Positions 1 to 13,069 of a stretch of 13,069 bases of DNA are shown here, piece by piece. Made by a program: the position numbers and the translations under genes. The stretch is from IMG/VR virus record IMGVR_UViG_3300045988_082792, positions 1-13,069 of that record, one strand, 5' to 3'. The stretch comes from a virus. Each line of letters starts with the position of its first letter. The stretch's first letter is position 1. Below the pieces are notes generated by a model that was not told where the DNA came from, ran no database searches, and was given only the letters and a program-made list of their open reading frames with translations.

Positions 1-19
1 AAACTTGGCAAGGTAAACC

Positions 20-66
20 TGTGAACAAATTGTGAACATTTCCCCAATCTGTTCATATTTTGTTCA
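20..66. repeat. Terminal-proximal phased repeat array (mirror copy at 13004-13050)
   Basis: TGTGAACA occurs at 20-27 and 31-38. The inverse hexamer TGTTCA occurs at 50-55 and 61-66. Spacing within each pair is 11 bp. The two pairs together form an imperfect inverted repeat. Confidence 0.8.
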
Positions 67-152
67 TAATTGCAAAACTGGCATGGTTCTTGCTAGGCAA
101 CTATAACATTAAATTGTCTGACAATATCACACAAAGTCTGTCACTTATCCTG

Positions 153-181
153 TTGACATATTAGTTCATTTGGACTATAAT
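153..181 (+). promoter_or_regulatory. Inward-facing consensus sigma-A-type promoter in the left ITR
   Basis: TTGACA (153-158), 17-nt spacer, TATAAT (176-181). Both hexamers and the spacing match the consensus exactly. AGGAGG and an ATG follow about 40 nt downstream. Confidence 0.8.
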
Positions 182-228
182 AAACTCAACAAATCAATAC
201 AGCACAGCCAACTAGGCAGGAGGGTGAA

Positions 229-309
229 ATGATGAGTGAAGCAAGATTATATGAATTAGCACATGAAAAAGAACTTTGGAAAGAATTAAAAATCTTGAAC
301 ACGAAATGA
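229..309 (+). CDS. ITR-encoded micro-ORF, 26 aa (left copy)
   Basis: ATG at 229 (second ATG at 232) to TGA at 307-309. AGGAGG at 218-223 lies 5 nt upstream. Translation is MMSEARLYELAHEKELWKELKILNTK, charged and helix-like. It falls below the ORF-track size cutoff. I recognise no family. Confidence 0.45.
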   Translation: MMSEARLYELAHEKELWKELKILNTK

Positions 310-341
310 AAGAAAAAGGATTTGAATAGGAGGATTAAACC

Positions 342-620
342 ATGAAATACAATCAATATTATAACAAAGAGGTCATGAACCTTAAACAACTTACTCATGA
401 TCTTGAGAAACAAGGCTTCACTTGTGAGATATCCGAAGATGGTGATTATTTATGTGTATACTATCTTTGCTATATAGATTACATTGAAATAGCCTTAACT
501 GGCTATAAGGATTGGTCGGTAGCTTACTATCAGTCATTTAAAGGACTTAAAATCTACAAGGCATCAACAAACTGGGGTGTAATCAAGCTGCTCAGAAAGC
601 TTTTGAAAGAAGCAAAATAA
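342..620 (+). CDS. Hypothetical early protein, 92 aa (the only unique plus-strand gene)
   Basis: The ATG is preceded by AATAGGAGGA (325-334, the last bases of the ITR). The ORF ends a few nt before the terminator hairpin. I recognise no family. Confidence 0.7.
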   Translation: MKYNQYYNKEVMNLKQLTHDLEKQGFTCEISEDGDYLCVYYLCYIDYIEIALTGYKDWSVAYYQSFKGLKIYKASTNWGVIKLLRKLLKEAK

Positions 621-623
621 AAT

Positions 624-657
624 GGTAGCCCGGCATCTGCTGGGCTACCTCTCTTTT
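624..657. terminator. Bidirectional intrinsic terminator between convergent operons
   Basis: GGTAGCCC (624-631) pairs with GGGCTACC (642-649), with further inner pairs. On the plus strand the hairpin is followed by TCTCTTTT. On the minus strand the same hairpin is followed by ATTTTATTTT. It lies between the stop codons of 342-620 (+) and 656-1912 (-). Confidence 0.8.
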
Positions 658-7610: not shown

Positions 7611-7624
7611 TTTTATCTCCTTTT

Positions 7625-7715
7625 CTGCCGGAAGTTAATTAAATAGGTCAACGCTTCCGGGTAATCATCCCACGGCATCCGCTTCCGGCGGTCGATGTAG
7701 CCACGTTGACCTAAT
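7625..7715 (-). other. GC-rich structured intergenic element (candidate ncRNA or regulatory RNA)
   Basis: This is the only sizeable non-coding gap (7611-7727) inside the long operon. TAGGTCAACG (7644-7653) and CGTTGACCTA (7704-7713) form a perfect 10-bp inverted repeat. CGCTTCCGG is directly repeated at 7652-7660 and 7680-7688. GCCGGAAG (7627-7634) is the inverse complement of 7682-7689. By hand count, 7651-7710 is about 60% G+C in an AT-rich genome. Confidence 0.5.
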
Positions 7716-7727
7716 TAAAATATAAGT

Positions 7728-8777
7728 TTATTTGAATAATTTGTCAATATAAAATTTTACTGAAATATTCTGATAACTTATCCTATTTGTCAGACGATAG
7801 CTATCAATCCAACTATAAAAGCATCTGAATTGGTCTTTTCCATGTTGGTTGTCTTCAAATACATCTTTACAAGACCCAGAGATATGATCCGACACATACA
7901 AATGAGCTTTTGATTTGTGCTCATAAATTGCTACTTTTCCAATCACACAAATAAGCTTGTATTGGCGTATATCCTCTGATCTGATAGCTGACACATCATC
8001 ATATGCAAACTCATTTGAAAGTGCCATCTTTGCAAAGTCCGTATCACCCGATAAAGCACGATACAATGCAGTGTCTTTCTTTTTTTCAGAAATCGGGGAA
8101 TCATTGATTAAAACTAAAATGATTCCTCGTTCTTTCAGCAAGGAAAATTCCTGCTTATTCTTTTTCATTCTCTCCAGGATTGGAAGCAAACCAAAAGCTT
8201 GTACAATCGGATTATCCAGTGTATTGGAATTGGAAGCAAGCCACCAGCGGAAGGGCTTCTTTCCTTGCAATTCCCTGTTTGCTGAAATCGTTTCTACAGC
8301 ATTCAAAAAAGCATCATCTTCCCCACTGATTGCTTTTGCAATCTTCTCCGGTATAAACTCATCATAAATACCCTCAGAAAAATCAGATCCGGAGAAACCA
8401 CGGTTGTTATGCATCGAGGTGAGACAAAAAGCCTCACCTCTGTATACTTCCTCTTCCTCAACCTGTTCTACAATCTTGATGCGCCCATACTCACCTCTGG
8501 GTTTTTCAAAATGAAAAAATTTATTCATATCTTTGTTAATGTCCAGCCACGGGTCAAACTCCGGAAGAAACACTTTTGCCAGCTGCTCTTTTGTCCGGCG
8601 CATGTAAATGATTTTTTCATTTTTTGAAAAAACATCATTGATAAAGTGCTGGAAGATCCCGTATGTTTTACCGGTTCGTCTTGCTCCAATGATAAAGATA
8701 AAATTAATTTTATTTTTATCGGCAAGCTGGACAATCCTTGGAACGTCCAACCACCCATTTTTATTATAGATATTCAT
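7728..8777 (-). CDS. DNA encapsidation ATPase (phi29 gp16-like), 349 aa
   Basis: INFIFIIGARRTGKTYGIF...EKIIYMRRTKEQLAKV aligns with gp16 ILNFVIGARGIGKSYAM...EQFIYVRRYKPELAKV, which includes Walker A. A Walker B-like GIYDEF matches gp16 IVFDEF. Size is similar to gp16 (332 aa). Confidence 0.9.
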   Translation of the reverse strand: MNIYNKNGWLDVPRIVQLADKNKINFIFIIGARRTGKTYGIFQHFINDVFSKNEKIIYMRRTKEQLAKVFLPEFDPWLDINKDMNKFFHFEKPRGEYGRIKIVEQVEEEEVYRGEAFCLTSMHNNRGFSGSDFSEGIYDEFIPEKIAKAISGEDDAFLNAVETISANRELQGKKPFRWWLASNSNTLDNPIVQAFGLLPILERMKKNKQEFSLLKERGIILVLINDSPISEKKKDTALYRALSGDTDFAKMALSNEFAYDDVSAIRSEDIRQYKLICVIGKVAIYEHKSKAHLYVSDHISGSCKDVFEDNQHGKDQFRCFYSWIDSYRLTNRISYQNISVKFYIDKLFK

Positions 8778-9077
8778 TTACTGAAATCCACCTCCAGAGG
8801 TTGCAGGCTGCGAAGTCTGATTGCATTCCTTATACTTTTTAATGCAAGCATCCTGCAAAAGATTTGACCACTCTTTATCCAGAGAGTAAACGGAATTGTA
8901 ATAGTTTCCATCTTTTCCTTTTTTGCTTGGGGATGACAAAAAAAGTCCATCATTCCCCTCAACCAGTGTAAGTCCTTTAATTACAAGTGTGTCATCAAGT
9001 TTAAGATCAATAAAAGCTTTTGTTTTTGAGTTACCGTTATATGGTTTGCAAGTGATTTTTACATTTGATTTTAACAT
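8778..9077 (-). CDS. spoVG: SpoVG-family nucleic-acid-binding protein, 99 aa
   Basis: AFIDLKLDDTLVIKGLTLVEGNDGLFLSSPSKKGKDGNYY...LLQDACIKKY aligns with B. subtilis SpoVG [40 protein letters not shown]...KIQDAVLTEY as I recall it. SD is AAAGGAG. The stop abuts the ATPase ATG. Confidence 0.75.
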   Translation of the reverse strand: MLKSNVKITCKPYNGNSKTKAFIDLKLDDTLVIKGLTLVEGNDGLFLSSPSKKGKDGNYYNSVYSLDKEWSNLLQDACIKKYKECNQTSQPATSGGGFQ

Positions 9078-9422: not shown

Positions 9423-9536
9423 TTAATCACCTAACAGCATCCAGACTTGACAGCTTGCAAACATGCAAGCAAAAGTGACGCAAGTCCAAAACAATGTACT
9501 CAAATCTTCTTTGTTTTCTTTCCAGAATTTTTTCAT
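9423..9536 (-). CDS. Small membrane peptide, 37 aa
   Basis: It falls below the ORF-track cutoff. The ATG is preceded by AAGGAGGTG. Translation is MKKFWKENKEDLSTLFWTCVTFACMFASCQVWMLLGD, with one hydrophobic helix. It is the first ORF downstream of the polymerase gene. Confidence 0.55.
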   Translation of the reverse strand: MKKFWKENKEDLSTLFWTCVTFACMFASCQVWMLLGD

Positions 9537-9603: not shown

Positions 9604-11727
9604 CTATTCATATACTGTATCTTCCATTTCAAATGGCAACGGCAATCCTGTTTCTTTATCATACGGAATCGTATGATCCAATTCATACTCTGTATCAGTC
9701 AACCGGATAGCACAGCCATATTCAATCCTGCATCCGTCAATGGTCAGTTCATTGATTCCATCATGAAAAAGATACTCCGTTTTCATTTTCCACTTGGGGT
9801 CCTGCCAATCATTCGCCCTGCGGTAGTTCCTGCGGAATGTAAGATCATTTTTGAAAATAAATCCTTTTCGAAAATTGGAAATATCATCATCAAGACAATA
9901 TATCCCCTCTTTTGGCACTCCAGCGACCGTCAGATGCAAAGATGCATCTTTTTTTAAGCGGTAACAATACCGCTTACTACCCATCGTTATAAACTCACTG
10001 TATATTCCATCAAACTCAGCGATACCCAGACGGAATGTTTTTCCCTTATACTCAACTACTCCGATGTTTCTTTTTTGTGACATTTCAACGATGGACTGAT
10101 TAAATCCATCCAGTTTATCATGATCCCAGTCTGTGCCTTTAACAGAGTCCGTATCAGAGTATAGCCATTTCCGGCAACAAGACCCCAACCGGAAAAGATA
10201 TGCCTGTGCATAGGCTGTGATAAAAACTCCCCACTGGTAGGGCATAAAGCTGTTTTTATTTTTGTAAAACTTTTCAAGTTCTTTCTCTCTGTCCTCTGGC
10301 TCTTTTGCCTCCCACTCTCCGGATTCCATCAACTCAGTACATAAGATTTGAATGATCCGCTGTACTGTCATGCCGTACATTCCATTAAGTTCCCCTTTTG
10401 AGATCATATAGTTTGCTTCATCCAGACCTTTAAGGGTACATTTTTTAAAAAACAATTCCATCAAATAGCCAATGAACCACTCCGGCAAGTAGTCCTTTGT
10501 CGCTCTCATGACCTTTGACACGTCCGCCCATTCATAATCATAACTTGACAGGATGACTTCTAAATCCGGATCAGTAAATGGATATATGACAAGATCTGCA
10601 TTTACAATCTTTCCATTGTCCAAATTATCATGGAACTGTTCTTTTTTGCTTTTTGCTTCCGGGAAAACACAAACTTTTGCTTTTGAAAAAGCAAGAGGTG
10701 GCATAGGGCAGTCTTTTTTCAACCTCAGATTCTTTAATCTTATATAACCGGAAAAAGCATAATCTTCTTTCAAGTCCATAATGTCTTTTAATGTTATACT
10801 ATTTGTATAACAAAAGTTCGTCATAGGAAATTTGCAATAGCACATCCAAGCAATGTATGAGCTTGCAAAATCGTAGCATTCGACAGGTTCTTTTATCAAT
10901 TGATTAACATAGTATCTGTTTGCATGCGTATATCCCCCATGATAGCAGTCAAGCATTTGGTCATACTGTTCAAGTGTTAATGCCATTTGCTCAAATTGCT
11001 TGCGCCATTTCTTGTCTTTTCTTGATCTTCTGCGGGCATTGGTTCGGATAAAACCAGTATTGGTTAGCGGACAGTTCGCCACGTTAAACCCTCTCTGATC
11101 TATGTATTTGCGCAGTGCCTTGCACAAACTTATCGTATCAGTACAGACATATGCTATTTCTTTTGCCGTACGTGGGCTTGCTGGTGTTCGAAACTTCTTA
11201 TAGTCCCATGTTCCGACAGCTTTCTCAGTGGTTCCCATGTCTTTACAAAGCTTTTCTAACGATCGCTGTGTCAAGATAAGACTGTCACGGAACTCAATCC
11301 CCTGCCCTGTCCATTTCATAAAGATGTACTTATGAGTTTTAGCGGCTAATGATTTGTCCGGATTCCCCCATTTTTGGAAAAAATGATTTCTTAAAAATAC
11401 ATAGTCATACGGAAAGTTATGCACATAAAAGCGTACAAGGTGGCTGTCATCAGCATGTAATGTGGTACAGATCTTGTCTATCGTGTCTATCAGATCTGAT
11501 ACATGATTGCCATAGATGCAGCAATCATTCTCTATCGTGATTGTCCAATCAGTAACAAAACCAATGTTTTTGTTGAGATAGACAAAGGTTTCCGTGTCTA
11601 CGGTTATGATTTTTTCATATACTCCAAGATAATGACCTGCGTTGGATCTCCGGATAAAATTACCATCAAATAAGCTCATATAATCATACTTTTTGAAGTA
11701 TACAACCGGATATCCTGCTACTATCAT
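9604..11727 (-). CDS. Family-B DNA polymerase, protein-primed type (phi29 gp2-like), 707 aa
   Basis: Exonuclease motifs: Exo I VDTETF, Exo II HNFPYDYVFL, Exo III YVCTD. Polymerase motifs: motif A YDFASSYIAWM (Dx2SLYP-like), motif B KGELNGMYG (Kx3NSxYG), motif C LYSDTDS, and KxY as SKRYCY. SD is GGGGAGGT. The gene sits next to an ITR and a candidate terminal protein. Confidence 0.92.
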   Translation of the reverse strand: MIVAGYPVVYFKKYDYMSLFDGNFIRRSNAGHYLGVYEKIITVDTETFVYLNKNIGFVTDWTITIENDCCIYGNHVSDLIDTIDKICTTLHADDSHLVRFYVHNFPYDYVFLRNHFFQKWGNPDKSLAAKTHKYIFMKWTGQGIEFRDSLILTQRSLEKLCKDMGTTEKAVGTWDYKKFRTPASPRTAKEIAYVCTDTISLCKALRKYIDQRGFNVANCPLTNTGFIRTNARRRSRKDKKWRKQFEQMALTLEQYDQMLDCYHGGYTHANRYYVNQLIKEPVECYDFASSYIAWMCYCKFPMTNFCYTNSITLKDIMDLKEDYAFSGYIRLKNLRLKKDCPMPPLAFSKAKVCVFPEAKSKKEQFHDNLDNGKIVNADLVIYPFTDPDLEVILSSYDYEWADVSKVMRATKDYLPEWFIGYLMELFFKKCTLKGLDEANYMISKGELNGMYGMTVQRIIQILCTELMESGEWEAKEPEDREKELEKFYKNKNSFMPYQWGVFITAYAQAYLFRLGSCCRKWLYSDTDSVKGTDWDHDKLDGFNQSIVEMSQKRNIGVVEYKGKTFRLGIAEFDGIYSEFITMGSKRYCYRLKKDASLHLTVAGVPKEGIYCLDDDISNFRKGFIFKNDLTFRRNYRRANDWQDPKWKMKTEYLFHDGINELTIDGCRIEYGCAIRLTDTEYELDHTIPYDKETGLPLPFEMEDTVYE

Positions 11728-11743
11728 TACTTTACCTCCCCTG

Positions 11744-12364
11744 CTATGGTCTGTACTTCAAAGCCTCAGACTCACCAGAAAAACCTAGCTCTTTTGCAAT
11801 CGTATCAGCCATATCCGGATCTGTTCTTTCTCTGAATTTCTCCAAATCTTTTATGATCTCAGAAACAGTAGAATCATCCAGTTTGTGACTGATGATTCGC
11901 ATTGTCTGTTTACTATCATAAAATCTTTGCAGCCACTTCCAAACCTCAGATTTGAAAAACAGCTTCATTTCCTCTTTTGACTTAAAATTGATTCCGTATT
12001 CAGTGCTGAGTGTTTTTTGACGTTTATCAATAATTTCTCTCCAACCTTGCACAGTGCTACTTTTTTCTTTCAATACTTTTTGTATGGCTTTGACCTGTGT
12101 TCTAGGTAACCCTTTATACTTTTCATTTTCCAAGTTTTCCGGGATGGTTGACCGTCCGGGAAAAAACCTTACAAGTAAATCTTGATAGTCAGCGTACGCT
12201 CCTCCTACTTCTGAATCAAATCCTTTTGCCTTTAATCTACGCATACGCTGATTAAGACGTTTTGCAAGCTGTCTGCGGAGATGTAAAGCCTCAGCAGTAG
12301 TCAGCATGTTTGGGTTTACGTTAAGTCCCTTTGAAGTGGTCGGGATTTTAGGATTTTTTGGCAT
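11744..12364 (-). CDS. Candidate terminal protein (phi29 gp3 position), 206 aa
   Basis: It lies immediately upstream of the polymerase gene, as in phi29. It has a basic N-terminus (MPKNPKIPTT..., LRRQLAKRLNQRMRRLKAK), comparable to the gp3 N-terminus MARSPRIRIK. Composition is helical and charged. I recognise no sequence motif, so the assignment is positional and compositional. Confidence 0.5.
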   Translation of the reverse strand: MPKNPKIPTTSKGLNVNPNMLTTAEALHLRRQLAKRLNQRMRRLKAKGFDSEVGGAYADYQDLLVRFFPGRSTIPENLENEKYKGLPRTQVKAIQKVLKEKSSTVQGWREIIDKRQKTLSTEYGINFKSKEEMKLFFKSEVWKWLQRFYDSKQTMRIISHKLDDSTVSEIIKDLEKFRERTDPDMADTIAKELGFSGESEALKYRP

Positions 12365-12728
12365 TGTACAAAACCCCCTTCATATACTCATAAATGCTAT
12401 CATAATCCTTGGTCGTTATGCGGAAATCCAATTCCGGTTTTTTAATGATTAAGTAAAGGTTTTCACAAACAATTCTTGCATCGTTAATGGTATCATAGAC
12501 TATAGCAACATAAGATTCATCAGTATCATTACTCTGTATAATTATCTTAGAGGATGATCTGGTATACATAGTTTTCCGTGTTAATCTTTTAATTGTAATA
12601 ATCATTTCCTCATATTCTAATTCAATGATGCTAGCCCTGCTAAGTTCTGGACTTGATTTCATACAAGTTACTACCGGGGCTTTTATTCCGCTATTGGTAT
12701 ATTTGATTTTTGTGTATTTTGAGTTCAT
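12348..12728 (-). CDS. Hypothetical early protein, 126 aa (first unique gene of the right operon)
   Basis: The ATG is preceded by AATAGGAGGA, which is ITR sequence and the same SD as the 92-aa gene at the left end. It overlaps the next gene by 17 nt. I recognise no family. Confidence 0.7.
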   Translation of the reverse strand: MNSKYTKIKYTNSGIKAPVVTCMKSSPELSRASIIELEYEEMIITIKRLTRKTMYTRSSSKIIIQSNDTDESYVAIVYDTINDARIVCENLYLIIKKPELDFRITTKDYDSIYEYMKGVLYNAKKS

Positions 12729-12760
12729 TTAGTGTTCCTCCTATTCAAATCCTTTTTCTT

Positions 12761-12841
12761 TCATTTCGTGTTCAAGATTTTTAATTCTTTCCAAAGTTCT
12801 TTTTCATGTGCTAATTCATATAATCTTGCTTCACTCATCAT
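12761..12841 (-). CDS. ITR-encoded micro-ORF, 26 aa (right copy, identical)
   Basis: Exact mirror of 229-309, with the same SD and the same peptide. It is the first cistron downstream of the right ITR promoter. Confidence 0.45.
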   Translation of the reverse strand: MMSEARLYELAHEKELWKELKILNTK

Positions 12842-12888
12842 TTCACCCTCCTGCCTAGTTGGCTGTGCTGTATTGATTTGTTGAGTTT

Positions 12889-12917
12889 ATTATAGTCCAA
12901 ATGAACTAATATGTCAA
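12889..12917 (-). promoter_or_regulatory. Inward-facing consensus sigma-A-type promoter in the right ITR
   Basis: Mirror copy: TTGACA is the reverse complement of 12912-12917 and TATAAT of 12889-12894. It sits in position to drive the long minus-strand gene array. Confidence 0.8.
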
Positions 12918-13069
12918 CAGGATAAGTGACAGACTTTGTGTGATATTGTCAGACAATTTAATGTTATAGTTGCCTAGCAAGAACCATGCCAGTTTTGCAA
13001 TTATGAACAAAATATGAACAGATTGGGGAAATGTTCACAATTTGTTCACAGGTTTACCTTGCCAAGTTT

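Follow-up and report, generated by a model that had tools for sequence, protein, structure and literature searches.

The stretch of DNA analyzed here (the window) is the complete 13,069-bp linear genome recorded in IMG/VR as IMGVR_UViG_3300045988_082792, which we assign from its sequence to an uncultured, phi29-like, protein-primed podovirus of the human gut. Our subject is the perfect 334-nucleotide (nt) inverted terminal repeat (ITR) at both of its ends. From the end inward, each arm carries a conserved terminus, a set of phased TGTTCAYA motifs, an inward-facing consensus promoter, a Shine-Dalgarno sequence (SD), a 26-codon open reading frame (ORF), and a second SD, after which the first unique gene begins on either side (Table 1).

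Table 1. Coordinates of the terminal repeats, the elements within them, and the adjoining genes (positions in the window; aa, amino acids).
Feature	Position	Strand	Mirror copy	Remarks
Left ITR	1-334	+		100% complementary to the right arm
Right ITR	12736-13069	-		Exact mirror of 1-334
Terminus AAACTTGGCAAG	1-12	+		Kept as AAACT(T/A)GGCA(A/T)G in all clades
Four TGTTCAYA motifs, 11-nt phasing	20-27, 31-38 (-); 50-57, 61-68 (+)	both	13002-13050	
Predicted inward promoter, sigma-70/sigma-A type	153-181	+	12889-12917 (-)	-35 TTGACA 153-158; 17-nt spacer; -10 TATAAT 176-181; mirror copy upstream of the 126-aa, putative terminal protein and DNA polymerase genes
First SD, AGGAGG	218-223	+	12847-12852	5 nt before the ATG at 229
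26-codon ORF, MMSEARLYELAHEKELWKELKILNTK	229-309	+	12841-12761 (-)	TGA stop 307-309
Surviving copy of 10-nt direct repeat AGCACATGAA	258-267	+		Both copies present in L077 and L070
Run of five A	288-292	+		Six A in the closest intact relatives, L070 and L077
Ancestral C-terminus, out of frame, MKEKGFE	306-329	+		TAG stop 327-329, embedded in the next SD (TAGGAGGA)
Second SD, AATAGGAGGA	325-334	+	12736-12745	Last bases of the ITR; used by the first unique gene at either end
Left unique gene, 92 aa, MKYNQYY... family	342-620	+		Homologues at the left end of many relatives
Stem-loop, presumed terminator	624-649			11 bp (8 G-C), T-runs on both strands; conserved in L085, L090 and L076
Right unique gene, 126 aa, MNSKYTKIKYTN... 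family	12348-12728	-		First gene after the right ITR

The window was compared with ~60 related genomes obtained in two IMG/VR scans, mostly at 88–99% protein identity, and with two more distant clades, L106-L116 (~74% connector identity) and L050-L052 (50–57% identity in the putative terminal protein). Within the window, the two mirrored promoters are the sole 12/12 matches to TTGACA-17-TATAAT (expected number 0.01; two matches were reached in 0 of 200 shuffles), with transcription start sites predicted near 188 and near 12882. To follow the promoter across relatives, genome ends were located via the downstream anchor CAAAT.AA, independently of the hexamers. All 30 distinct ends kept TTGAC at -35 and the T, A, and final T at -10, where TATAAT predominated over TATGAT, TATAGT, TATACT, TAAAAT, TACTAT, and TATTAT; the spacer was variable in sequence and 16–18 nt long. 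In the distant clades the upstream part of the ITR has diverged, yet the promoter lies at the same distance from the end (TTGACT-17-TACTAT or TTGACA-17-TAAAAT), and overall an inward promoter occupies the same place in the ITR in about 60 relatives and across three diverged clades. Hexamers that are retained in place amid a changing spacer and upstream ITR form the pattern expected from selection on a working promoter. The promoter and ribosome-binding site common to both ends are real and conserved, and they are very probably functional.

The inner edge of the repeat is tied to the ribosome-binding sites. In most relatives the first SD directly serves the first unique gene at each end, and most relatives cease to match the window ITR at the nucleotide level at about 224–240, or ~224–257 once the mapped repeat boundaries are included. 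In the window itself the arms stay identical through position 334, and 7 nt further inward, at what corresponds to 342, each unique gene begins; their 92- and 126-aa products show no similarity to each other by BLASTP. Thirteen relatives for which both inner boundaries are available (L055, L058, L061, L062, L068, L073, L074, L075, L079, L082, L094, L099, and L105) behave alike, in that the two arms part somewhere from the SD, GGCAGGAGG(G), to a few nt beyond the first ATG, and the repeats that extend past the start codon are cases where both end genes begin with ATGAAA. Counted from the terminus, the repeat ends at 224 nt in L068, 227 in L105, 236 in L082, 237 in L055, 245 in L073, and 252 in L058, and at ~240 in L062 and ~237 in L094 after correction for terminal nt missing from the contig. 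The L061, L074, L075, and L079 contigs do not include the termini, and their repeats end at the same SD/ATG junction; that of L099 ends immediately past the SD.

First genes in the relatives differ between the two sides. The left one usually belongs to the 92-aa MKYNQYY family, and the right one to a 124–144-aa MKSKYTKIKYTN family, a 77-aa MKRGMILNGR family, or others. The use of one promoter, leader, and ribosome-binding site for two unrelated end genes is thus the rule for the whole phage group. We also noted that the first gene after the right ITR promoter of L041 (86-850), and similarly at the right ends of L054 and L059, encodes a 255-aa protein, MKENTLVLRPSYWASVSGGKDSLYMLKY..., with a motif that by eye resembles the PAPS-reductase/ATP-pyrophosphatase family, as accessory cargo in a variable slot. 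Two relatives bear on how far the left promoter is needed: in L085 it leads straight into the terminator hairpin with no gene between, and L090 has an ITR of just 117 nt and a left end without the promoter. The left copy is therefore dispensable; it appears to come along with the repeat as a side effect, one open to use by the phage for expressing accessory genes. Because the L090 ITR is 117 nt long, the sequence needed at both ends is at most ~117 nt.

An earlier note on this DNA had described much of this anatomy, and that part of it was borne out: the exact promoter in both ITRs, the 26-codon ORF with AGGAGG 5 nt from its ATG, the second SD serving the first unique genes with identity ending 7 nt before both start codons, and the lack of relationship between the 92- and 126-aa genes. 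Its broader proposal, that the ITR is more than a replication origin and gives two unrelated genes a common promoter, leader, and SD, is now backed by about 60 relatives.

The note had also taken the 26-codon ORF for a peptide gene that each genome carries twice, and here the relatives point elsewhere. In at least ten of them, the slot after the ITR SD holds an intact gene of 58–64 aa. Homologues were found by tblastn at the left end (L077, L059, L057, L078, L073, L083, L079, and L075) and at the right end (L070, L076, L082, and L104); the L070 protein, MMKEARLYELAYEALLERWGVEYDYTMKYPDIEVFVAHEKKLWKELKNLEDEMKEKGFK, is an example. Members of this family have diverged to 53% identity with their frames intact, at a ratio of nonsynonymous to synonymous substitution rates (dN/dS) of 0.2–0.6 for dS of 0.4–1.1, from which we conclude that the 58–64-aa gene is real and under purifying selection. 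Aligned at the nucleotide level with L077 and L070, the window copy is missing 78 nt (26 codons) exactly between two copies of the direct repeat AGCACATGAA, one of which survives; judged from the alignment, such a loss carries the signature of replication slippage. In addition, loss of 1 nt from a run of A residues shifts the frame and thereby produces the TGA stop that now closes the ORF. The same five-A run is present in L117, an ENA contig from a human gut metagenome. As a result, the window copy no longer encodes the central 26 residues, and the frameshift has put the conserved C-terminus (NLE.EMK.KG) out of frame. That this C-terminus can still be read out of frame indicates that the decay is recent. 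Its ancestral TAG stop is embedded in the next SD, and for this reason the second SD falls inside the repeat.

The deletion variant was reproduced in L117 only. An exact search for the deletion junction in IMG/VR and the JGI metagenomes gave no match, which identifies the 26-codon ORF as a recent, lineage-specific pseudogene remnant; in most relatives no ORF whatever intervenes between the SD of the ITR and the first unique gene. With its SD and ATG intact the remnant is probably still translated, and the 26-aa product is most likely functionless. A separate case of decay was seen in L054, where a copy of the 59-aa gene (13151-13314) is frameshifted and split by tblastn over two frames; since this copy is damaged as well, decay of the 59-aa accessory gene may be recurrent.

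Might the 26-codon ORF instead encode a working small peptide, or act as an upstream ORF with a regulatory role, and have been duplicated on purpose in the two ITRs? Its near-ideal SD and spacing, its ATG start, and a frame that is intact in both arms would suit such a role, as would the identical sequence in L117 and the fact that it forms part of the gene caller's partial gene at the contig edge. An ORF of 26 codons is shorter than gene callers usually report. Yet the 26-codon frame is unique to this lineage, every homologue being 58–64 aa long and under purifying selection, so what the relatives conserve is not the 26-aa frame; with the central residues gone, the C-terminus frameshifted, and no ORF in that place in most relatives, the two-copy peptide gene of the earlier note does not hold up. 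Nor does the leader show an RNA structure on which the translation of an upstream ORF could act. We regard a dedicated peptide or regulatory function as improbable.

The remnant also bears on why the window ITR is longer than that of its relatives, about 224 nt from the end being the family core and 225-334 an extension peculiar to this genome. Both gene orders needed for such an extension occur naturally: at the left end of L073, L078, L057, and L076 the 59-aa gene precedes the 92-aa family, and at the right end of L070, L082, and L076 it precedes the 126-aa family; L076 has an intact 59-aa gene at both ends. L103 has a 442-nt ITR built around a different, unrelated, and intact 62-aa gene together with the next SD; its two ITR copies differ by two mismatches only, which change TTA to CTG (both Leu). 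In the reading we favor, the longer ITR of the window arose by capture of the 59-aa early gene. Recombination between two phages, one of the left type and one of the right type, would suffice to place the 59-aa gene, with the SD overlapping its stop, at both ends, where it would have been absorbed into the repeat and then decayed. Because both copies bear the same two lesions, the ends must have been homogenized or duplicated after the decay. Homogenization could proceed by gene conversion as terminal repeats pair during replication, a process in line with what is generally known of protein-primed replicons.

The extension might alternatively have been made by the assembler, with a real ITR of ~224–250 nt and a remnant at one end that was copied to the other. 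Implausible inverted repeats do occur in related contigs (1430 nt in 080276 and 557 nt in L093), and no second contig supports the right-end junction. Against an artifact, both junction types are natural in relatives, the left junction is reproduced in L117, L076 and L103 have the same gene-inside-ITR architecture with intact genes, and the repeat stops cleanly at an SD/ATG junction as in relatives rather than in mid-gene. An artifact is therefore highly improbable in our view. The suspect contigs themselves end differently: the perfect 1430-nt inverted repeat at the ends of L049/L098 (IMGVR_UViG_3300045988_080276) stops within the tail-fiber gene, and the perfect 557-nt repeat of L093 within the terminal protein gene. 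These are probably assembly chimeras, or defective genomes from strand switching; because their repeats stop inside essential genes and look chimeric or defective, they were not counted as ITR growth.

From the observed anatomy and conservation of the repeat, the decay of the gene, and the variable ITR boundary, we consider it likely that the ITR is a composite replication-plus-expression module and that the micro-ORF within it is the pseudogene of a captured 59-aa gene. Several points weigh against this reading. The remnant retains a perfect SD and ATG, the peptide may have a residual or regulatory role, and a low-level -1 slip on the A-run could yield a 33-aa product. The use, timing, and start sites of the promoter were inferred from its consensus match and conservation, and that the host reads a sigma-A-type promoter and a strong SD is an assumption made from the sequence. 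The 100% identity of the arms is weak evidence of homogenization, because assemblers' handling of repeats could contribute to it. The right junction (remnant followed by the 126-aa gene) was seen in the window only, and an exact look-up of the 126-aa protein found no record elsewhere. Although L117 has the same left end from 207 inward, micro-ORF included, it may come from the same sample as the window.

The outer part of the ITR is consistent with a replication role. The terminus AAACTTGGCAAG is common to the ends of more than 20 related contigs, and the window ends are for this reason very likely true termini. It is presumed to be the protein-primed replication origin, and its AAA fits sliding-back initiation. 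All eight TGTTCAYA motifs in the genome lie inside the ITRs (eight were reached in 0 of 200 shuffles), and the 20-68 region that holds the left four includes a 17-nt inverted repeat, I1. A further motif, TTAGTTCAT, in the promoter spacer (161-169) carries GTTCAT, akin to TGTTCAYA. The ITR of the distant clade has another repeated motif, GACAATT. Speculatively, the TGTTCAYA motifs may be sites for a phage DNA-binding protein, presumably an origin protein or a regulator, that perhaps affects the promoter.

How the module might work can be outlined if we infer promoter activity, early timing, the functions of origin and repeats, and the homogenization mechanism from these features. From the end inward, it would comprise the terminus as presumed origin, the phased TGTTCAYA repeats, the inward promoter, an unstructured leader of ~40 nt, and a strong SD. 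Host RNA polymerase would initiate at ~188 and ~12882 upon DNA entry. The right transcript would cover the 126-aa gene, the putative terminal protein, the DNA polymerase, and genes beyond, that is, the replication operon, while the left would cover the remnant and the 92-aa gene as a short accessory unit ending at the 624-649 hairpin, a presumed bidirectional terminator closing both this unit and the long leftward operon. In protein-primed replicons the ITRs are kept identical; since the repeat reaches the first start codon, any first gene inherits the same promoter, leader, and ribosome-binding site. In this picture, genes are exchanged in the two end slots as ATG-to-stop cassettes.

A bolder extension, which we hold to be doubtful, would make the ITR a portable platform for expression, with ribosome-binding sites fixing its inner edge. 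Cassettes would move between ends and between phages by recombination or template switching at the conserved (T)AGGAGG junctions, and one would sometimes be pulled into the repeat to become a two-copy gene that evolves in concert (as in L103, L076, and the window). The slots would then form a dedicated, fast-turnover site for host-takeover or anti-defense genes, and the 26-aa or 33-aa product could retain a function.

We also weighed whether the ITR transcript is a non-coding RNA, such as a phi29-like packaging RNA (pRNA), rather than an mRNA leader. The phage has a packaging ATPase and connector of the phi29 type, and the pRNA gene of phi29 is close to the genome end (PMC11476376). Nonetheless, an Rfam search of the whole window at E ≤ 10 gave no match inside the ITRs and no pRNA (RF00044), the predicted ITR transcript (188-345) is no more stably folded than shuffled sequences (z -0.29), and relatives show no conservation beyond ~235. 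With a far better structured-RNA candidate elsewhere in the genome (7642-7714, minus strand), a pRNA-like ITR transcript is extremely improbable. An RNA-structure role of the ITR leader was dropped on the same folding result.

That other candidate is a GC-rich, 73-nt three-way-junction RNA located within a 117-nt gap (7611-7727) between the packaging ATPase gene and a 103-aa gene. Its outer stem is formed by UAGGUCAACG/CGUUGACCUA, with hairpins CCGC-CGGAA-GCGG and GGG-AUGAUUA-CCC, and its minimum free energy has a z-score of -2.0. Covariation supports it strongly: across 19 distinct sequences, 98.6% of cells were paired and eight pairs were changed on both sides, and 0 of 500 shuffles were as good. 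A covariance model matched in all three clades of the group and had no match in AD70P2, HM2, Cp-1, P1, or five other fecal phi29-like scaffolds; no Rfam family matched the RNA. A downstream CUUCCGGC could pair with the GCCGGAAG of hairpin 1, its complement, in a pseudoknot or an alternative fold. Among promoter matches in the genome, TTGACA-17-TATATT (11/12; 7719-7747, minus strand) ranks second; it is conserved in relatives, shares sequence with the 3′ end of the ATPase gene, and immediately precedes the structured RNA and the head genes. It is probably the late promoter. The RNA could be a pRNA-like packaging RNA or a late-operon leader, and we judge it more novel than the shared ITR promoter.

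The remainder of the genome supports the phage assignment, to podoviruses of the Picovirinae type that resemble Salasmaviridae and Guelinviridae. With PHROG profiles, a 707-aa ORF (9604-11727, minus strand) matched B-family DNA polymerase (phrog_1907, E = 5.5e-51), and further matches were to the phi29-type packaging ATPase (phrog_2150, E = 8e-29), the upper collar connector (phrog_2038, E = 2e-22), the major head protein (phrog_2006, E = 2e-8), and a tail protein. By tblastn the polymerase has ~30% identity to those of Clostridium phage HM2, Amedibacillus phage AD70P2 (Guelinviridae), and Salmonella phage astrithr, the nearest cultured relatives, and an unannotated human fecal scaffold (MT836115.1) is 84% identical to the window genome-wide. 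The group as a whole is abundant in the gut and uncultured, with genomes of 12–13.5 kb. All long ORFs of the window except one are on the minus strand. Directly upstream of the polymerase gene, a 206-aa ORF (11744-12364, minus strand) conserved in 51 relatives had no significant Pfam or PHROG match and is likely the terminal protein. The 92-, 126-, and 59-aa proteins likewise belong to no Pfam or PHROG family.

Two other small genes were noted on the minus strand. Between the early genes and the packaging ATPase gene, a 99-aa ORF (8778-9077) is a SpoVG homologue (PF04026, E = 9e-16); SpoVG proteins are nucleic-acid binders, and their presence in a phage this small is unusual. An apparent 195-nt non-coding gap after the polymerase gene contains a 37-codon ORF, MKKFWKENKEDLSTLFWTCVTFACMFASCQVWMLLGD (9423-9536), with a good SD, which falls under the 40-aa cut-off of the ORF list; its product is hydrophobic and likely a small membrane protein.

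For this group of gut phages, a terminal repeat that combines origin with early promoter and ribosome-binding site helps to place true ends and first genes in metagenomic assemblies. It also carries a warning for annotation, in that a tiny ORF close to an ITR can be the wreckage of a gene even when its SD is perfect. The hypervariable slots just inward of the ITR hold families of 92, 126, 59, 62, and 77 aa with no known function; if, as we propose, they are expressed first, they are natural candidates for host takeover or anti-defense. For the engineering of orthogonal protein-primed replication, L090 suggests a natural minimal ITR of ≤117 nt, and the ITR-plus-promoter unit may be reusable. 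Most worth following are the labile ITR boundary anchored at ribosome-binding sites and the fast-changing first-gene slots.

Among known systems, larger genomes provide a parallel for the capture. In poxviruses and some linear plasmids, a moving ITR boundary swallows whole genes, giving two copies that evolve in concert. Their repeats are kilobases long, and poxvirus ends are hairpins rather than protein-primed, whereas the window captured one tiny gene or its remnant. Phage phi29, a member of the Salasmaviridae, resembles the window phage in its B-family DNA polymerase, packaging ATPase, connector, and major head protein, in having early genes at the ends, and in the AAA of its terminus; its ITR is only 6 bp (AAAGTA), and its early promoters A1, A2b/c, C1, and C2 are unique and lie outside the repeat (PMC11476376), in contrast to the 334-nt, promoter-bearing ITR described here. 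When checked for an ITR promoter, AD70P2, HM2, and five other fecal phi29-like scaffolds had incomplete ends or short ITRs. Open-access literature on phage ITRs treats their lengths, and we found no explicit statement in it on ITR promoters.

Closer precedents come from GenBank annotations that we checked on the sequences. Streptococcus phage Cp-1 (Salasmaviridae, NC_001825) is likewise a protein-primed, phi29-like podovirus with early promoters inside the terminal repeat. Its DNA polymerase is only distantly related to that of the window, and Cp-1 was not among the tblastn matches of the latter. Its annotated ITR is 236 bp, and by sequence comparison an imperfect repeat continues to 352 nt with eight mismatches. 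The left end has two TTGACA-17-TATAAT promoters, at 222 and 316, both mirrored on the right (the outer one with a TACAAT -10), and they read inward into different early genes from annotated starts PE1/PE2 on the left and PE4/PE5 on the right. It differs in having two tandem promoters instead of one and in a repeat that ends about the start site, after which the leaders diverge, so that leader and SD are unshared; the window repeat spans the leader and SD, a gene remnant, and a second SD. Mycoplasma phage P1 (Delislevirus, NC_002515) is also protein-primed, with an 11.7-kb genome and a perfect 350-nt ITR. A promoter is annotated in both its ITRs (227-260 and the mirror position), and the repeat extends to, or to within a few nt of, the start codon of a different gene on either side, orf1 (DNA polymerase) and orf11. 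In P1, by contrast, the annotated promoter is a predicted one, the right-hand gene has its SD beyond the repeat, the ITR contains no ORF, and the genome is organized differently, with the polymerase gene first at the left end. The arrangement had seemed unfamiliar to the earlier note, which compared it with the 6-bp ITR of phi29, but the Cp-1 and P1 records already annotate mirrored promoters in long repeats, and so the arrangement itself is not new. The window group differs from these two phages in degree only: its repeat includes the leader, the SD, and occasionally a whole small gene.

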